Of a stretch of 64,000 nucleotides of DNA, positions 11,390 through 49,177 are shown piece after piece. The notes beneath the pieces were generated by a model that saw only the letters and a list, made by a program, of their open reading frames with translations, was not told the origin of the DNA and made no database searches. The first letter of the stretch is position 1; each line of letters opens with the position of its first letter. The translations under genes were made by a program, and so were the position numbers. The stretch lies in NCBI GenBank assembly GCA_000091205.1, contig AP006486.2; one strand, 5' to 3'. This DNA comes from Cyanidioschyzon merolae. Its lineage: Eukaryota.

Positions 11390-12340
11390 ATGGAAGCAGC
11401 AGTGGACTGGTATGACTTTTGGAACTATTATTACTTGGGCAAATACCAGGCTGCCAATGACGTGTGCACGACCCTACTAGAACCGAACCAGTGGCCTCGG
11501 TCGGTTCTCCTGGCAGTGATCCGTTTACGACTTGCGTTGCGCGACCTGGAAGGGATTCGCGCTCTCCGGAACCTAGTGAACGACACGTGGACCTCCTCGG
11601 TTATCCACGAGCTCATCGAGACACTCCAAAAAAACGTGCCTCCCATAGACGACGGGGAACGCTTGCGTTCGGTCGTGTTCGGAGACGGGTCAGCGCTCGA
11701 CGCGGTCGATGAAGCGGGACGGCTGCTAGCAGCGCTGGCGCTCCAACGAGCAGGCCTGTACCTGGACGCTCTCGAGACGCTGCCACTGTCTCGTTGCGAA
11801 AACGATGCGGAATCAAGAGCGTGTCGTATCTGTTTATGGTTGCACCTCAACCGGCTGGACCGGGCACAGCTCGAGCAACAGGCGCTTGAGCACTGGTTCG
11901 AGCGACAGCTCGCCGACGGCGATCAGCGTGCCGTCGGAACACTGGTACAGCTGAGCAGGGCAACGCTTGCGGTAGCTAGCAACGACGCTGAAGACGTCGC
12001 AATCGAAGCTGCGTTGCGTTCGTGCAGGGATCTCGCAGAGCGCTACGGGCCCTCGACGAAGCTACTGAACCTCACCTACTTGTGCCTGGTACGTCTGGGT
12101 CGTACCGAGGCATCCGAGAGCACACTGCAGCAGGCGATGAACCTGGATGCACAAGACCCGGATACCATGGCGAATACTGCTGCCAGTGCCGCGAAGACAT
12201 CGATGATGATGATGGCGTTTCCGGAAGCCGCAACAGCGACCCAGCGCCCTATCGAATATCTGCGCAAGTATGCCCCGTGGCATCCGTGGATTCGTGCTCA
12301 GGATGACTTTGAACGCAAGCTCCGGGGCTTGGCAACCTGA
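11390..12340 (+). CDS. COPE: Coatomer subunit epsilon (epsilon-COP)
   Basis: About 300 aa of TPR-like protein. N-terminal motif DFWNYYYLGKYQ (cf. VKNAFYIGSYQQ) and C-terminal WHPWIRAQDDFER (cf. SHPFIKEY..FDR) match epsilon-COP. Starts at ATG 11390. Confidence 0.65.
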   Translation: MEAAVDWYDFWNYYYLGKYQAANDVCTTLLEPNQWPRSVLLAVIRLRLALRDLEGIRALRNLVNDTWTSSVIHELIETLQKNVPPIDDGERLRSVVFGDGSALDAVDEAGRLLAALALQRAGLYLDALETLPLSRCENDAESRACRICLWLHLNRLDRAQLEQQALEHWFERQLADGDQRAVGTLVQLSRATLAVASNDAEDVAIEAALRSCRDLAERYGPSTKLLNLTYLCLVRLGRTEASESTLQQAMNLDAQDPDTMANTAASAAKTSMMMMAFPEAATATQRPIEYLRKYAPWHPWIRAQDDFERKLRGLAT

Positions 12341-12400: not shown

Positions 12401-15400
12401 TCACGCCCGCGATGGTGGACCCCGTCGCGCCGCTCGCTTCTGGGTACGGTATCGCTCCACGATGGTCGACAAGTGCGGTGTGGGTAGCGCGGCATTTCTT
12501 GTTCGCTCTCGCTCCCTCAAGACTCGTTGAAACGCTTGCCAGAACGCCACTATCTCATCGAAAGTGGGTCGTTGCTGTCGTCGCTGACGGAAACAGCCAT
12601 CTAGAAGCGATTTCAGGCCTTCGTCGGTGTCCGGTGGCGCTCTGAGACGTTCACCGCGCTGCGCTACTCGATAAATGACCTGAATGGGGTGTTCATCGGA
12701 CCAGGGCTTGTCACTGGTGATCAGCTCCCACACAATAACGCCGTAGGACCAGACGTCGCTCTTCTCATCGACGGTTTCTTGACGCATGACCTCGGGCGCC
12801 ATCCACTCGGGCGTACCCGCAGCACCCGTTGCCAACATGGTGTGCACACGAGAGCGGCTCAGACCAAAGTCGGTGACAATGGGCGTGCCTGTTTCGGCGT
12901 CGATGAGCACATTCGGGGACTTGAGGTCCCGATGGATCACCGGTGGCTGCTGCGCATGCAAGTACTGAACGCCTTGGGCGATCCCGAGAGCCAGTTGGGC
13001 AATTTCGGCGAGGCTGAAGGCAGGGCCGTCCGCAGCGGCCTTGCGCGCATGAATGAGACGATAGAGTGAGCCGCCGCTCACAAAACCCAGCACAATGCAG
13101 AGATGCGGTGACTTGGTTACCGCACCGATAAAAGGCACGATGTTCGGATGTTTCAATCGGCTGAGGAGAACCATCTCTTTCTGGAAATCCTCCACGGTTT
13201 CCAGACTGTAACCGTCGTCGTCGCGGGTCAGTTGTTTGACGGCGACGATGACACCGCGCCATTCGGCCATGAACACTTCACCAAAGGCACCGGCTCCGAG
13301 TTTGCTTCCAAAGCGAAGCTCTTCGTACGGAATATCCCATTTTTCACGCCATTCTCGGTCAAAAAGCAGTGGGGCATTCCCGTAATATTCCATCTCCGAG
13401 GCAGTAGATCCGTCGATGGGCCCGTCTTCCGCCTGTTGCTGCTGTTGTTGTTGTTGCTGCTGAGACGCTTCGCCAGCGGCGTTCAAGTCGCGCGTTCGAG
13501 CCGCCTGTAATGCTCGCTGTGCCTCTGTGTGCAGGTCGCGATCCGGCCTGGTCGATTTGTCTGCGAGCCATCCAGAAGACAGCGCGGATGCGGCATCAGC
13601 AGGGCCCTGCATGGTGCGTCGCTCCTCGAGGGCGCGTCCTCGAGCATCCGATGCCAACGCTGACTGCTGCTGCTGCCACATCTGCTGAGCGAGCGCACTC
13701 CTGCTCTGCTGCTGACGCAGGTGATCCACGCGTTCAAGACGACGATGAATTTGGGCGAGTTCTCCGATCGAACGCGTCAGCGCCTCGTGGTTGCTCTCGC
13801 GGCAGTCCAGAATGCTGCTTTTCGGGATGCAGTGAACGAGGGCCGGCAGGTCTGTACTCCGCCAGTAGATCATAAAGACGGTTTCAGGTCCACGCTCTAG
13901 CGCTCGGCACAGGGCCAAGGAGAACAGCGTCGCACATTGAGGTGAACGAAAGAAACCGTCGGAAACCAGAGCGACAAACCTCTTCGAATGCAGCATCGAA
14001 CTGTACCATTCATCCATAAAGAAAGCGGAGCGAATATCGGCCTCTTGGTCGGGAGAAACCGGCCCGTCAGCTCGACCTTGCTCCGATTGTTGCGCGTAAT
14101 GCGAATGTTCTGCTGCTCCGAGCGCAACCGTTGTGCCTTCCACGAATCCAATTCGCTCAGCGCTAGCGACGGGTTCGCTTCTGTCGCTGGACGACCTGTG
14201 CTGACCCTGGCCAGGATTTGATGCTGTCCAGTGTGTCGTGGGTGCAGCTCCACGATGATCATTCCGTGCCGCCGCCGCCGCCGCCAAAGACGCACCAGTC
14301 AGATCCGCAGTGGCGGGCGCTTGTTCCGCACCATCCATCGCTGGCGTTTCAGCGCTGACGCCAGGTTCGTCGTCGGCGACACTATGTTCAGGCCCGCTTT
14401 CCAAGGGCTCAGTGACCGCGTCGGCTGCATGACGCTGGAGCGCACGCTCCCTGAGGCTCCCTCTTGTGACGCCCTGTGCGTCTCCTTTGGACGTCAATGT
14501 CGTCGTATCGACGGTCTGTGGCTCAGCAGTTGCAGGCGTCGCAGATGCACCCGAAAGATTCGGGAAACCCCAGTGCGCAGTGCGCAATCCCCCGTCGTTC
14601 GACGGGGCCGCAATGTCCCACTCTTGGCGTTCGACCAGTTCTGTCGCAGCAACGTCCAGTGCACGACTGTGCACATCAAACACCTTAAAGCCAAAACGCA
14701 CGCGCAGTACGTGAATAATTTCCCATGCAACTTTGGTATCGTCCCGGTGGTACAATACGAAAAAATCCCGTTCTAGGCGACGCTTCGACGATGCCATCGC
14801 TTGCGAGGTAGCAATGGTGTCCGCGACCGGAGATACCAACTCGGGTGCGAGTTCGCTGCGCGTCTCGCCAGGAGCGCCCGAAAGCGGAGGTGCATCTCCG
14901 ACGCCATCTCCGGTCTGCACCGAAGCGACATGCTCGGACTTGGAACGCTTCGGGTCATAGCGCCCCTCTTCATCCATGCACTCACGGAACGACGAGAGCA
15001 GCCGCTGAACGCTCGGCGTGCAGAAGCCTCGCGGCACCAAGATGCGAATGAGGGGCAAGCTCAACCCGGCGCTACACCATCGCAGGGCCGCATCCAGCAG
15101 GTATGTCAAGACGTCGACTGCATCGGCCGCATACTCGAGACACAGCGGAAACATGACACTGCGGATACCCGTTCTGCCAGAGCAGAGCAGTGTTAAAAAT
15201 CCAAAAGCATGTTGGATGACTCGCTTGTACGATTGGGCCCGGTCGCCGTCGATCACCAGAATTCGGCGGAATTCGATGCCTCGCGGACGCGGGCGATGCA
15301 AAACGTTCGTCAACCAGGCAGCGTAGTGTCGTCGATAGGCGCGCTGCGGTTTTGCCTCGGCAGCTAGATCTGAGAGTTCGAGGCCGACTGAGCGCAGCTC

Positions 15401-16741
15401 GTCGAGCACGCTAGGGAGCTCGCACGGTCTTTCGGACGCGAAGTTGCCGGCGTCGGGGTTTCGTGCGCTTTCTAGACGCTCCGCTGTCTGGGCGGAGCGG
15501 GCGCCCTCGGATGCCGCCTCAAGCAATGTTGAGTTCTGGGACGCATCCGCGTGATTCCCGTTTCGCTCATCACTCAACGCGTCGTTGGTGCTCGAAAGCA
15601 CCCCGTGTCGGGCGTAAATCGAAGACGGGCGCGCAGCGGCTCTGGCTTCTGCGGGCGCCTGTGTCCTGGATTTCGCACAGATGGCGAGCAGGTCGACGGC
15701 GTCACCAGGTTGCATGGACACCGGCGATCCCTCGCTTATTTCTACAATGGATCGGCCAGAACCTCGAAGGATCGTGAAATATTGAACGCAGTTGAACGAC
15801 TGCCGAGGCAGCGGCACGGGCGGCAACGATACCTGCGCACGCGCCTCCTCCTGGAGAGTCTGGGGGCGCGCCCCATCGCTATCGCCGGTGTTGTCCGCGG
15901 GAACGCTGTCGCCATTGCTATCAGCGGCAGCATCGGGGTAGGGCGTTGCCACTCGTGCGTTGGTATCCACAGCACTACCGTGGTCCCCTGAGGACACGGA
16001 TAGAGAGCCCTGTTCTTGCACCTGGTCATGTGCTGACCACTGAGTGTCGTCAGTCGCAACGTTATCCTCGCTTGTCGACCGTACAACATCGGCAACACCA
16101 CGCTGAGTTGACGACTCTGGAGCCGTCTCTGCCCCATTCTGGATTTGCATAGTAGATGCAGTTGCGCCTGTGGGTGCTGCATCAGGAGCCTCAGGCTGCG
16201 CGCTGACCCCTGAACCTGTCGATCGGTCGGATCCGCTCGCAGTGGGCAACCGACTCGATACATTCCTGGATTCCGCCAAGATCGGGCTTTCTGCCAACGA
16301 CCCGCAAGTTCCATCCGTAGATTGGAACTCCTTCGCGCGCACCTGCTGAGCAGCACTCGCCGAGTTTTGCGCACGAATCGAGCCTGATGTCGAAGGTGCC
16401 CCTTTGCGATGCCGTGGTCGTGCAGCTTTACCAGTTTTTGATGCACTTGCACTCTGGGGCCGGTCACGCGCTGCGATGCTCGTAGCGGATGCCGAAGTTT
16501 TGATGCGCTCGGGCGTCGTACTTCCCTGGGCCCAGAGAGCCGTACTGGCGCCGAGCTCTGACGGCCCCAGTGTCGCGCCCATATTTCCCAGACCACTCAG
16601 ATAGGATTTTGCGAGCCACGTCAATATTCGGATGGGGAATGGACGCTTATCTGTTGGATTTGGCGTACGAAGCAGGCGCTTTCGTTGTTGGACGCCTCTG
16701 TCGTCGAGAGGCGTCGTAGTATGTCCCGAAGAGGGCGCCAT
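12401..16741 (-). CDS. Large multidomain Ser/Thr protein kinase: C-terminal TKL (Raf/CTR1/MLK-like) kinase domain (about 12560-13330), poly-Gln tract (about 13440-13470), TIR-like domain split by a low-complexity insertion (about 13830-14770), long disordered S/A/T/Q-rich N-terminus
   Basis: Kinase motifs: LGAGAFGEVF...VAVK, HRDLKSPNVLID, DFGLSR, GTPEWMAPE, DVWSYGVIVWEL. TIR-like: RDFFVLYHRDDTK...FGFKVFD, then after an insertion of about 210 aa SKRFVALVSDGFFRSPQCATLFSLAL...ETVFMIYW.STDLPAL. One uninterrupted 1446-aa ORF starting at ATG 16741. Confidence 0.85.
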   Translation of the reverse strand: MAPSSGHTTTPLDDRGVQQRKRLLRTPNPTDKRPFPIRILTWLAKSYLSGLGNMGATLGPSELGASTALWAQGSTTPERIKTSASATSIAARDRPQSASASKTGKAARPRHRKGAPSTSGSIRAQNSASAAQQVRAKEFQSTDGTCGSLAESPILAESRNVSSRLPTASGSDRSTGSGVSAQPEAPDAAPTGATASTMQIQNGAETAPESSTQRGVADVVRSTSEDNVATDDTQWSAHDQVQEQGSLSVSSGDHGSAVDTNARVATPYPDAAADSNGDSVPADNTGDSDGARPQTLQEEARAQVSLPPVPLPRQSFNCVQYFTILRGSGRSIVEISEGSPVSMQPGDAVDLLAICAKSRTQAPAEARAAARPSSIYARHGVLSSTNDALSDERNGNHADASQNSTLLEAASEGARSAQTAERLESARNPDAGNFASERPCELPSVLDELRSVGLELSDLAAEAKPQRAYRRHYAAWLTNVLHRPRPRGIEFRRILVIDGDRAQSYKRVIQHAFGFLTLLCSGRTGIRSVMFPLCLEYAADAVDVLTYLLDAALRWCSAGLSLPLIRILVPRGFCTPSVQRLLSSFRECMDEEGRYDPKRSKSEHVASVQTGDGVGDAPPLSGAPGETRSELAPELVSPVADTIATSQAMASSKRRLERDFFVLYHRDDTKVAWEIIHVLRVRFGFKVFDVHSRALDVAATELVERQEWDIAAPSNDGGLRTAHWGFPNLSGASATPATAEPQTVDTTTLTSKGDAQGVTRGSLRERALQRHAADAVTEPLESGPEHSVADDEPGVSAETPAMDGAEQAPATADLTGASLAAAAAARNDHRGAAPTTHWTASNPGQGQHRSSSDRSEPVASAERIGFVEGTTVALGAAEHSHYAQQSEQGRADGPVSPDQEADIRSAFFMDEWYSSMLHSKRFVALVSDGFFRSPQCATLFSLALCRALERGPETVFMIYWRSTDLPALVHCIPKSSILDCRESNHEALTRSIGELAQIHRRLERVDHLRQQQSRSALAQQMWQQQQSALASDARGRALEERRTMQGPADAASALSSGWLADKSTRPDRDLHTEAQRALQAARTRDLNAAGEASQQQQQQQQQQAEDGPIDGSTASEMEYYGNAPLLFDREWREKWDIPYEELRFGSKLGAGAFGEVFMAEWRGVIVAVKQLTRDDDGYSLETVEDFQKEMVLLSRLKHPNIVPFIGAVTKSPHLCIVLGFVSGGSLYRLIHARKAAADGPAFSLAEIAQLALGIAQGVQYLHAQQPPVIHRDLKSPNVLIDAETGTPIVTDFGLSRSRVHTMLATGAAGTPEWMAPEVMRQETVDEKSDVWSYGVIVWELITSDKPWSDEHPIQVIYRVAQRGERLRAPPDTDEGLKSLLDGCFRQRRQQRPTFDEIVAFWQAFQRVLRERERTRNAALPTPHLSTIVERYRTQKRAARRGPPSRA

Positions 16742-48400: not shown

Positions 48401-49177
48401 ATGTTCTGCACCTTGGCCGGCTACCGTTGGCTGAACAGTGGCTCGCTACTGAGACGTTTGTCGCAGCGAGCAGTGCGCCGCTTGCCGACAGCACCGCTGT
48501 GCCACCTGCACAACGGCGCCACTGAAAGCGCAGCCTCAAACGGAGCTCTACGCATTGTCGACGAAAAGGTTGCCTACCGACGCTATGCAACCGTGTTTGA
48601 ACGAACTGTACAGTACCCGGACGGCCGCCACGTCACTTATGACATTCTCGGTCAGCCGGCCGTTCAGAGCGCCTCGGTGCTGGTGTTTCCCTTTGATACG
48701 CAAAGCAAAACCTGCTACGTTATTCGAGAGTACTGTCCAGGTCCGAACCGTGTACTCTATGGCTTTCCAGCTGGTATGGTCGAAACGAAACACGAATCAT
48801 TGGAAGCCGCTGCTCGGGCAGAGCTTTCGGAGGAAGCACATCTGCGTTGTGCGCAACTCATCGATCTGACAGCTCAGGCCGCAGTTTGGGAGCGGTCCTT
48901 CGAAGTGCCGAATACCGCATCAGATGCTGAGAACTGTCTGCGAGGATTCTTCGCTGACAAGTACTCCCGGAATGTCTGCAAAATGTATTTGGCGTTGAAT
49001 CCCGAGCCCGATGGACACCCCGGCTCGATGGACGCTGAGGAGCTTATCGAGCAGGTTGGTGCGGTACGGGTGCCGCAGTTGGAAGCGTGGCTCTGGAGTG
49101 GTCAAATGACCATGCCACACATGCTGCTCGCGATGTGCGCGTTGACTTACCTGCGACAGCGCGGGATGCTGACGTAG
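48401..49177 (+). CDS. Nudix hydrolase (ADP-sugar/UDP-sugar pyrophosphatase-like)
   Basis: Nudix-box-like GFPAGMVETKHESLEAAARAELSEEAHL preceded by VLVFPFD...CYVIREYCPG. ATG at 48401; the N-terminal ~50 aa look like a presequence. Confidence 0.65.
   Translation: MFCTLAGYRWLNSGSLLRRLSQRAVRRLPTAPLCHLHNGATESAASNGALRIVDEKVAYRRYATVFERTVQYPDGRHVTYDILGQPAVQSASVLVFPFDTQSKTCYVIREYCPGPNRVLYGFPAGMVETKHESLEAAARAELSEEAHLRCAQLIDLTAQAAVWERSFEVPNTASDAENCLRGFFADKYSRNVCKMYLALNPEPDGHPGSMDAEELIEQVGAVRVPQLEAWLWSGQMTMPHMLLAMCALTYLRQRGMLT

Follow-up and report, generated by a model that had tools for sequence, protein, structure and literature searches.

Evidence for a TIR domain split by a BB-loop insertion, together with a macro-like domain, in a Raf-like kinase of the red alga Cyanidioschyzon merolae

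Introduction

In animals, plants and bacteria, TIR domains play a central part in immunity and in the signaling that leads to cell death, and their BB loop mediates TIR-TIR assembly. A TIR and a kinase occur in one polypeptide in the 'Kinase TIRs' and 'Kinase TLRs' of choanoflagellates; the authors who described them proposed that fusion bypasses kinase recruitment to TIR signaling complexes, and called the kinase-TIR architecture unique to choanoflagellates in their data set (Richter et al. 2018, eLife, PMC6040629). TIRs have barely been described in red algae, for which TIR surveys mention only the TIR-NBARC-WD40 proteins of Chondrus (PMC9806590). Here we analyze a 64,000-nucleotide stretch of Cyanidioschyzon merolae contig AP006486.2 (hereafter the window), which encodes a protein that very probably joins a TIR, overlooked by annotation, with a macro-fold domain and a Raf-like MAP kinase kinase kinase (MAPKKK).

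The gene occupies positions 12401..16741 of the window on the minus strand, where all features described below lie unless noted. Its open reading frame (ORF) of 1446 amino acids (aa) is identical to a C. merolae 10D protein encoded on a 513,455-bp chromosome in the NCBI records (BAM79110.1; XP_005535396.1; UniProt M1V432), and this protein is annotated only as 'Raf-related MAP kinase kinase kinase, theta-type'. An initial annotation, made from the sequence alone, had placed a TIR-like domain, interrupted by low-complexity sequence, upstream of the kinase. We conclude with high confidence that the protein has one genuine TIR, whose two halves (residues 658-705 and 896-1000) are parted by a translated, intrinsically disordered and fast-evolving BB-loop insertion of about 200 aa.

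Results

Two conserved segments match the halves of one TIR domain

The peptides on which the initial annotation relied all lie where it had placed them: RDFFVLYH...VFDVHSR at residues 658-693 (14770-14663), SKRFVALVSDGFF at residues 919-931 (13987-13949) and ETVFMIYWRSTDLPAL at residues 953-968 (13885-13838). The N-terminal half of the TIR (N-half; residues 658-705; 14627..14770) comprises βA (box 1, RDFFVLYH), αA and βB (FKVFDV), the elements that had been proposed for it, followed by a conserved short helix (RALDVAATELVER). The C-terminal half (C-half; residues 896-1000; 13742..14056) contains the predicted βC-αC-βD, and also αB before them and αD-βE-αE after them, with the family motif LDCRE. 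The fold thus extends a little past the range first noted (13830-14770), to about residue 1000 (13742).

Both halves are required for a confident profile match. The native protein matched Pfam TIR_2 (PF13676; profile length 122; curated gathering cutoff 28 bits) through its C-half only (residues 908-981; profile positions 40-109), with a score of 16.9 bits. When residues 697-905 were deleted, the match extended over profile positions 1-109, and its score rose to 31.4 bits (E 2.9e-7); other deletion boundaries gave 24-30 bits. The cutoff was reached only with the loop insertion excised.

An exhaustive phmmer search of 1.84 billion representative proteins with a spliced 146-aa construct returned 54 matches at E≤1e-3. 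Beyond the orthologs, about 31 of these aligned contiguously over about 130 residues, straight through the splice junction, and their TIRs are unsplit; all 31 junction-spanning matches carry Pfam TIR_2 (best 1.7e-25) and TIR (PF01582). A joint family profile also matched TIR domains of solved structure, led by TLR15/TLR2 (1.6e-19) and MyD88 (4e-16), then TIRAP, L6, RUN1, AbTIR and SARM1. A weak PADLOC match to ThsB (E 0.056) was not informative.

The contribution of the short N-half was measured against a control hidden Markov model (HMM) built from 29 of these TIRs, with all red-algal sequences excluded. The N-half alone scored 21.7 bits, whereas none of 332 other 51-aa windows taken from the protein exceeded -0.4. 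Joined to the C-half it scored 91.9 bits, compared with at most 71.0 for any other window so joined and at most 75.4 for 500 shuffled N-halves. Because the spliced query itself had served to find the 29 control TIRs, this control lacks the full independence that the Pfam model has.

The canonical box 1 motif, (F/Y)D(A/V)F(I/V)SY, lies at βA. The C. merolae sequence RDFFVLYH aligns there to YDVFVSYS, with D, F and Y in nearly invariant columns and Leu in place of Ser. No conserved Pro/Gly of an RDxxPG-like box 2 was recognizable in the alignments, and the BB loop is not short. A short BB loop with box 2 is a variable feature of the TIR family, not a strict requirement.

We modeled the native segment 646-1000, insertion included, with AlphaFold, using a MAFFT alignment bridged by the spliced window sequence to place βB. 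The predicted local distance difference test (pLDDT) values were 91-97 at residues ~656-705 and 85-96 at ~895-1000; at residues ~711-881 they were below 50 almost throughout, without secondary structure. The modeled elements follow the order βA, αA, βB, short helix, insertion, αB, βC, αC, βD, αD, βE, αE, giving the flavodoxin-like three-layer fold of five parallel strands (βA-E) alternating with helices (αA-E). The two segments superpose on solved TIR domains over 123-132 residues. The C-half is only ~105 residues long, so both halves must sit in one domain of the model, and the assembly that the initial annotation had asked of a structure prediction is the one obtained.

Several observations count against this identification. 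The native sequence falls below the Pfam cutoff, and phmmer of the spliced TIR against the PDB gave no match. Foldseek with the TIR model placed TIRs on top with weak scores (E 2.9e-3), because the insertion breaks local alignment. The AlphaFold model was guided by an alignment of TIR homologs, and it corroborates the sequence evidence without being independent of it. The argument that the insertion is translated comes from conservation of the ORF.

The TIR is interrupted in its BB loop by a disordered insertion

The insertion (residues 706-895; 14057..14626) lies between βB (FKVFDV) and αB (MDEWYSS), in the BB loop. C. merolae has 218 aa between these two elements, P0002 (a syntenic ortholog on metagenome contigs) 221, P0133 132 and Cyanidium caldarium 231, as against 14-15 aa in Agarophyton, Rhodosorus, Pyropia and one further relative. 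The net insertion in C. merolae is thus ~204 aa, slightly shorter than the ~210 aa first estimated, and its low-complexity character is as described (54% A/P/S/T/G; 14% hydrophobic residues). Most of it has pLDDT below 50. Among the family members aligned, only Cyanidiophyceae carry a large insertion here, which is why domain annotation missed the TIR in C. merolae.

The insertion evolves far faster than the sequences around it. Between C. merolae and P0002, the two halves of the TIR are 78% (N-half) and 68% (C-half) identical and the kinase 85%, compared with 17% for the insertion. A perfect (GCC)6 repeat at 14268-14285 encodes a run of Ala (AAAAAA) in the insertion, and small repeat expansions may contribute to its growth.

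The canonical catalytic glutamate is replaced throughout the family

A Glu in αC is required for the NADase activity of TIR domains. In our alignments, the column that we take to be this position (C+3 in C-x-x-E-[LF]) holds the second Glu of C-x-E-E-F in bacterial relatives, the Glu of WCKYEL in TLR2 and the Glu of WCLMEL in flax L6. The SARM1 TIR did not align through αC in hmmalign and was not used for this call. In C. merolae the column holds Leu939 (codon CTG, 13925..13927; motif QCATLF), as the initial annotation had suspected when it described the Glu as replaced. Leu also occupies it in the other three cyanidialean orthologs (C-x-[TS]-L-F), and every other red-algal member aligned has Ala there, including the florideophytes (CTEAF), which keep a Glu one residue earlier. 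From these alignments, the whole family, not C. merolae alone, appears to be without the canonical catalytic Glu.

The three-domain architecture is conserved across red algae

A search with the compact N-domain plus TIR of Agarophyton recovered relatives in Gracilaria domingensis, Agarophyton chilense, Porphyra umbilicalis, P. purpurea, Pyropia yezoensis, Rhodosorus marinus (transcripts) and Cyanidium caldarium. The order macro-like domain, TIR, kinase is kept in each of the four red-algal classes sampled, namely Cyanidiophyceae, Florideophyceae, Bangiophyceae and Stylonematophyceae; the Porphyra models are partial, covering the TIR part in P. purpurea and the macro-like part in P. umbilicalis. 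C. merolae and Gracilaria share 38% identity over the TIR C-half plus kinase (E 2e-95), and their N-terminal domains match at E 3e-16. The motifs DCRE and YRRHY are invariant in the conserved TIR and macro-like parts.

Outside the Cyanidiophyceae the TIR is unsplit and lies directly upstream of the kinase. An unsplit TIR_2 with a kinase was found in Agarophyton (40.8 bits natively), Gracilaria (40.2 bits natively), Rhodosorus and Pyropia. The proteins of Gracilaria domingensis (KAI0556668.1), Agarophyton chilense (CAN8063322.1), Rhodosorus marinus (A0A7S3A689, UniRef) and Pyropia yezoensis (contig_24048_g5922) belong to the same family and have the same domain order. Like C. merolae, the red-algal relatives have a conserved FFDxxWRxxW juxta-kinase motif and a CTR1-like kinase, and no catalytic Glu. 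Unlike C. merolae, their unsplit TIR passes the Pfam cutoff, and they have neither the insertion in the macro-like domain nor the disordered N-terminus of ~300 aa.

Automatic database annotation already tags the unsplit relatives as TIR_2 plus kinase. Our literature search found no paper on a red-algal TIR-kinase, on the C. merolae gene or on these auto-annotated relatives.

A macro-like domain precedes the TIR

Residues 317-587 (14981..15793) form a further predicted domain, absent from the initial annotation. No Pfam family (Macro included) and no PDB sequence matched this region. An AlphaFold model based on only 13 family members reached a predicted template modeling score (pTM) of 0.71, with pLDDT above 90 in the core, and has the three-layer α/β/α arrangement with mixed sheet that defines the macro fold. 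Fold search on this predicted structure alone made the identification, and no macro-domain alignment entered into the predicted assignment.

By eye, the ADP-ribose-binding motifs of macro domains are absent: we found no GDIT Asp, no NAAN and neither of the Gly-rich phosphate loops 1 and 2. Their positions hold QGSVEGL/EGSPVSM, VYLR/ICAK, RDSS and PLSGALLS/PLCLEYAA. Because these motifs are replaced and no profile matches, we call the domain 'macro-like'.

The macro-like domain carries a disordered insertion of its own (residues 359-433; 15443..15667; pLDDT below 50), which is specific to Cyanidiophyceae and absent from all non-cyanidialean family members. It parallels the insertion in the TIR. 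The twin insertions suggest that surface loops tend to expand throughout this lineage, which would hide domains from profile searches.

The protein ends in a CTR1-like kinase

Residues 1143-1399 (12545..13315) match Pfam PK_Tyr_Ser-Thr (PF07714; 3e-58) and Pkinase (1.3e-54), and the motifs VAVK, HRDLKSPN, DFG and APE are all present. The closest kinase of solved structure is Arabidopsis CTR1 (E 9.6e-71), followed by MLK1, DLK, TAK1, ZAK and B-Raf. We therefore predict a tyrosine kinase-like (TKL), Raf-like and more specifically CTR1-like kinase with intact catalytic motifs, in agreement with the TKL assignment made initially.

TIR and kinase are separated by a linker (residues 1001-1115; 13397..13741; 27% identical to P0002 overall) that contains a Q-rich helical stretch and a Gln tract encoded by a CAG-type repeat. 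This tract, noted initially as a poly-Gln of about 10 residues, is Q10 at residues 1094-1103 (13462-13433). Environmental C. merolae-like variants (P0001 and P0085-P0093; at least 97% identical) have five extra Gln near residue 1024 (~13670), so that the CAG-type repeats are length-polymorphic. Just past the TIR, residues 1001-1040 (13620-13741) form a Q/R/E-rich stretch, RLERVDHLRQQQSRSALAQQMWQQQQ, which is conserved in P0002 as RLERVEKLRQEQSETALARQLWQQGQ and absent from the florideophyte relatives. It is a candidate coiled coil that could contribute to dimerization.

N-terminus and genomic neighborhood

The protein begins with a weakly conserved low-complexity region (residues 1-316; 15794..16741) in which 83% of residues are disorder-promoting. 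Residues 1-300 are 29% identical to P0002, and residues 1-297 had no Pfam match. Cluster members of 1398-1399 aa are without the first 53 residues, which fits gene calls from an internal Met54; the residues upstream of Met54 are conserved in P0002, favoring the longer start.

The ORFs adjoining the kinase gene match, without differences, the C. merolae entries for coatomer epsilon, ubiquilin and LepA/GUF1. These and the other neighbors are unrelated housekeeping genes that provide no informative context. The coatomer-epsilon gene (11390-12340, plus strand) converges on the kinase gene (stop at 12401). The two stop codons lie only 60 bp apart, so the genes must have very short or overlapping 3' ends. 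An Rfam scan of the window gave no match. Some NUDIX enzymes hydrolyze ADP-ribose-type nucleotides, and a gene for a NUDIX-domain protein (48401-49177, plus strand; Pfam E 1.6e-8) lies ~32 kb from the kinase gene; nothing ties it to the macro-like/TIR protein.

Across the whole window, the 5' splice consensus GTRAGT is under-represented (29 observed versus 49.3 +/- 7.7 expected; 100 of 100 shuffles had at least 29). This scarcity would be consistent with a genome that has almost no introns and avoids cryptic splice sites.

Discussion

Together, the results point to a red-algal protein family in which a macro-like domain, a TIR and a CTR1-like kinase occur in fixed order, and in which the Cyanidiophyceae have split the TIR. 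The explanation that we favor as a whole, and regard as reasonably probable, combines this split TIR and family architecture with an assembly or regulatory role for the TIR. Since the Glu position is Leu or Ala in all family members aligned, the TIR is most likely non-enzymatic. By analogy with animal proteins it may act as an assembly or regulatory module for the kinase, a specific proposal to which we give even odds. The initial annotation had suggested a possible role in stress or immune-like signaling.

According to this proposal, the TIR would serve as a homotypic or heterotypic assembly module through which kinase domains are brought together, or gated, for trans-activation. Animal TIR scaffolds (TLR/MyD88) recruit the IRAK TKL kinases, and here a single polypeptide would provide the comparable link; the proposal also resembles the one made for choanoflagellate Kinase TIRs (PMC6040629). 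As for the macro-like domain, it may sense a ligand or act as an autoregulatory (kinase-autoinhibiting) module. Because other TIRs assemble through the surface on which the Ser/Thr-rich BB-loop insertion lies, this insertion is a candidate for a regulatory role; it could gate assembly sterically or through phosphorylation.

Four considerations speak against this scheme. It is built from the absent canonical Glu and from analogy, and nothing further. An insertion of 200 aa in the BB loop might itself block the proposed TIR-TIR assembly. Florideophytes keep a Glu in CTEAF, and non-canonical catalysis may occur. By eye, the macro-like domain is without the Gly-rich loops through which macro domains usually bind ADP-ribose.

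In an extended version, which we consider unlikely, the protein would be a one-protein device. Its macro-like sensor would bind an ADP-ribose-derived or related nucleotide, its non-catalytic (or non-canonically catalytic) TIR would oligomerize, and its CTR1-like MAPKKK would be switched on directly; the Ser/Thr-rich insertion of ~200 aa in Cyanidiophyceae would be a lineage-specific gate on TIR assembly. If this were true, NAD-metabolite or TIR-type signaling would be hard-wired to a MAP-kinase cascade in red algae.

The macro-like domain and the TIR might instead be conserved structural relics or spacers that have no signaling role of their own, the kinase being regulated otherwise. Both have lost the activity-defining residues of their families, and both tolerate large disordered insertions in Cyanidiophyceae, as such a history would lead one to expect. 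However, the folded parts of the TIR are 68-78% identical between cyanidialean species, compared with 17% for the insertion, and the three-domain order has been retained across four red-algal classes, both of which argue for function. We therefore hold this account to be improbable.

We give still less credence to a TIR that remains an enzyme, cleaving or cyclizing NAD+ (or another nucleotide) through a non-canonical residue and yielding a product that the macro-like domain would sense in cis to turn on the kinase. Such a self-contained device, converting a nucleotide signal into MAPKKK activity, could draw on the neighboring florideophyte Glu. It conflicts with the Leu or Ala found at the canonical position in every rhodophyte member aligned, and with a macro-like domain in which, by eye, the GDIT Asp, NAAN and Gly-rich phosphate loops are missing and to which Pfam Macro does not match.

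A further possibility is that an unannotated intron accounts for the insertion, or that the mature protein lacks it for some other reason, and that the real TIR is contiguous. Its deletion restores a BB loop of normal length, and GC content at third codon positions is somewhat lower in the insertion (0.56) than in the kinase domain (0.65). C. merolae is nearly intron-free, however, and the insertion frame is open over 190-231 codons in four of four cyanidialean lineages despite ~17% identity, while the other frames contain 2-11 stops. A stop-free run through the insertion has a probability of 0.003 for C. merolae and of 2e-4 for P0002, and GTRAGT occurs nowhere on its coding strand. Because the frame is open in all four lineages and this consensus is missing, we reject the intron, which we judge very unlikely, and read the insertion as a predicted translated, disordered and rapidly evolving loop.

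Chance resemblance of two short hydrophobic segments, with no TIR present, can be set aside as extremely improbable: the native Pfam score is below threshold, and the PDB phmmer and a word-index homology search with the spliced construct were empty (the latter failing to return even the parent protein), but the spliced Pfam score, the junction-spanning matches, the profile matches to solved TIRs, the structural superposition and the window controls all oppose it, and orthologous red-algal proteins with an unsplit TIR_2 above threshold, in the same place and the same architecture, effectively refute it.

The split TIR is of interest beyond this protein. C. merolae is a genetically tractable minimal-genome model in which targeted gene replacement is possible, and it therefore offers a testable system for the role of a non-NADase TIR outside animals. 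The insertion is also a natural experiment on how far the BB loop, a key assembly surface of TIRs, tolerates expansion. Lastly, long disordered loop insertions are common in Cyanidiophyceae proteins and hide domains from profile searches, so that domain censuses of these genomes undercount.

Comparison with known systems

A TIR-kinase fusion with a split TIR had been flagged initially as an unusual architecture. The fusion itself is not peculiar to this protein: it is conserved across red algae and has a choanoflagellate precedent. What is unusual is the Cyanidiophyceae-specific insertion in the BB loop. Choanoflagellate Kinase TIRs have a Pkinase domain followed by the TIR, with no transmembrane segment, whereas in C. 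merolae the TIR precedes the kinase, which places the protein outside that class. No macro-like domain has been reported in the choanoflagellate proteins, whereas the red-algal family has one. The two are probably independent fusions.

In animal TLR/MyD88/MAL signaling, the IRAK (TKL) kinase is recruited through death domains, whereas the C. merolae kinase is fused to its TIR. Animal TIRs also differ in having short BB loops with conserved Pro/Gly, and no macro domain is involved. The Raf-like MAPKKKs of the Arabidopsis CTR1/EDR1 type resemble the C. merolae protein in carrying their regulatory domains N-terminal to the kinase; in the plant proteins these are EDR1/CTR1-type domains, not a macro-like domain and a TIR.

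NADase TIRs (SARM1, plant TIR/TNL proteins, Thoeris ThsB with ThsA, and AbTir) have the catalytic Glu, for which C. merolae has Leu939 instead. The 'cryptic TIR' of BCAP (PDB 5for) is cryptic through divergence, whereas that of C. merolae is hidden by a large loop insertion. TIR and kinase fusions were thus already known, in the opposite domain order, from choanoflagellates; the new elements are the recognition of a TIR in C. merolae and other Cyanidiophyceae, its very large BB-loop insertion, the hidden macro-fold domain and the conservation of all three domains across the red-algal classes sampled.

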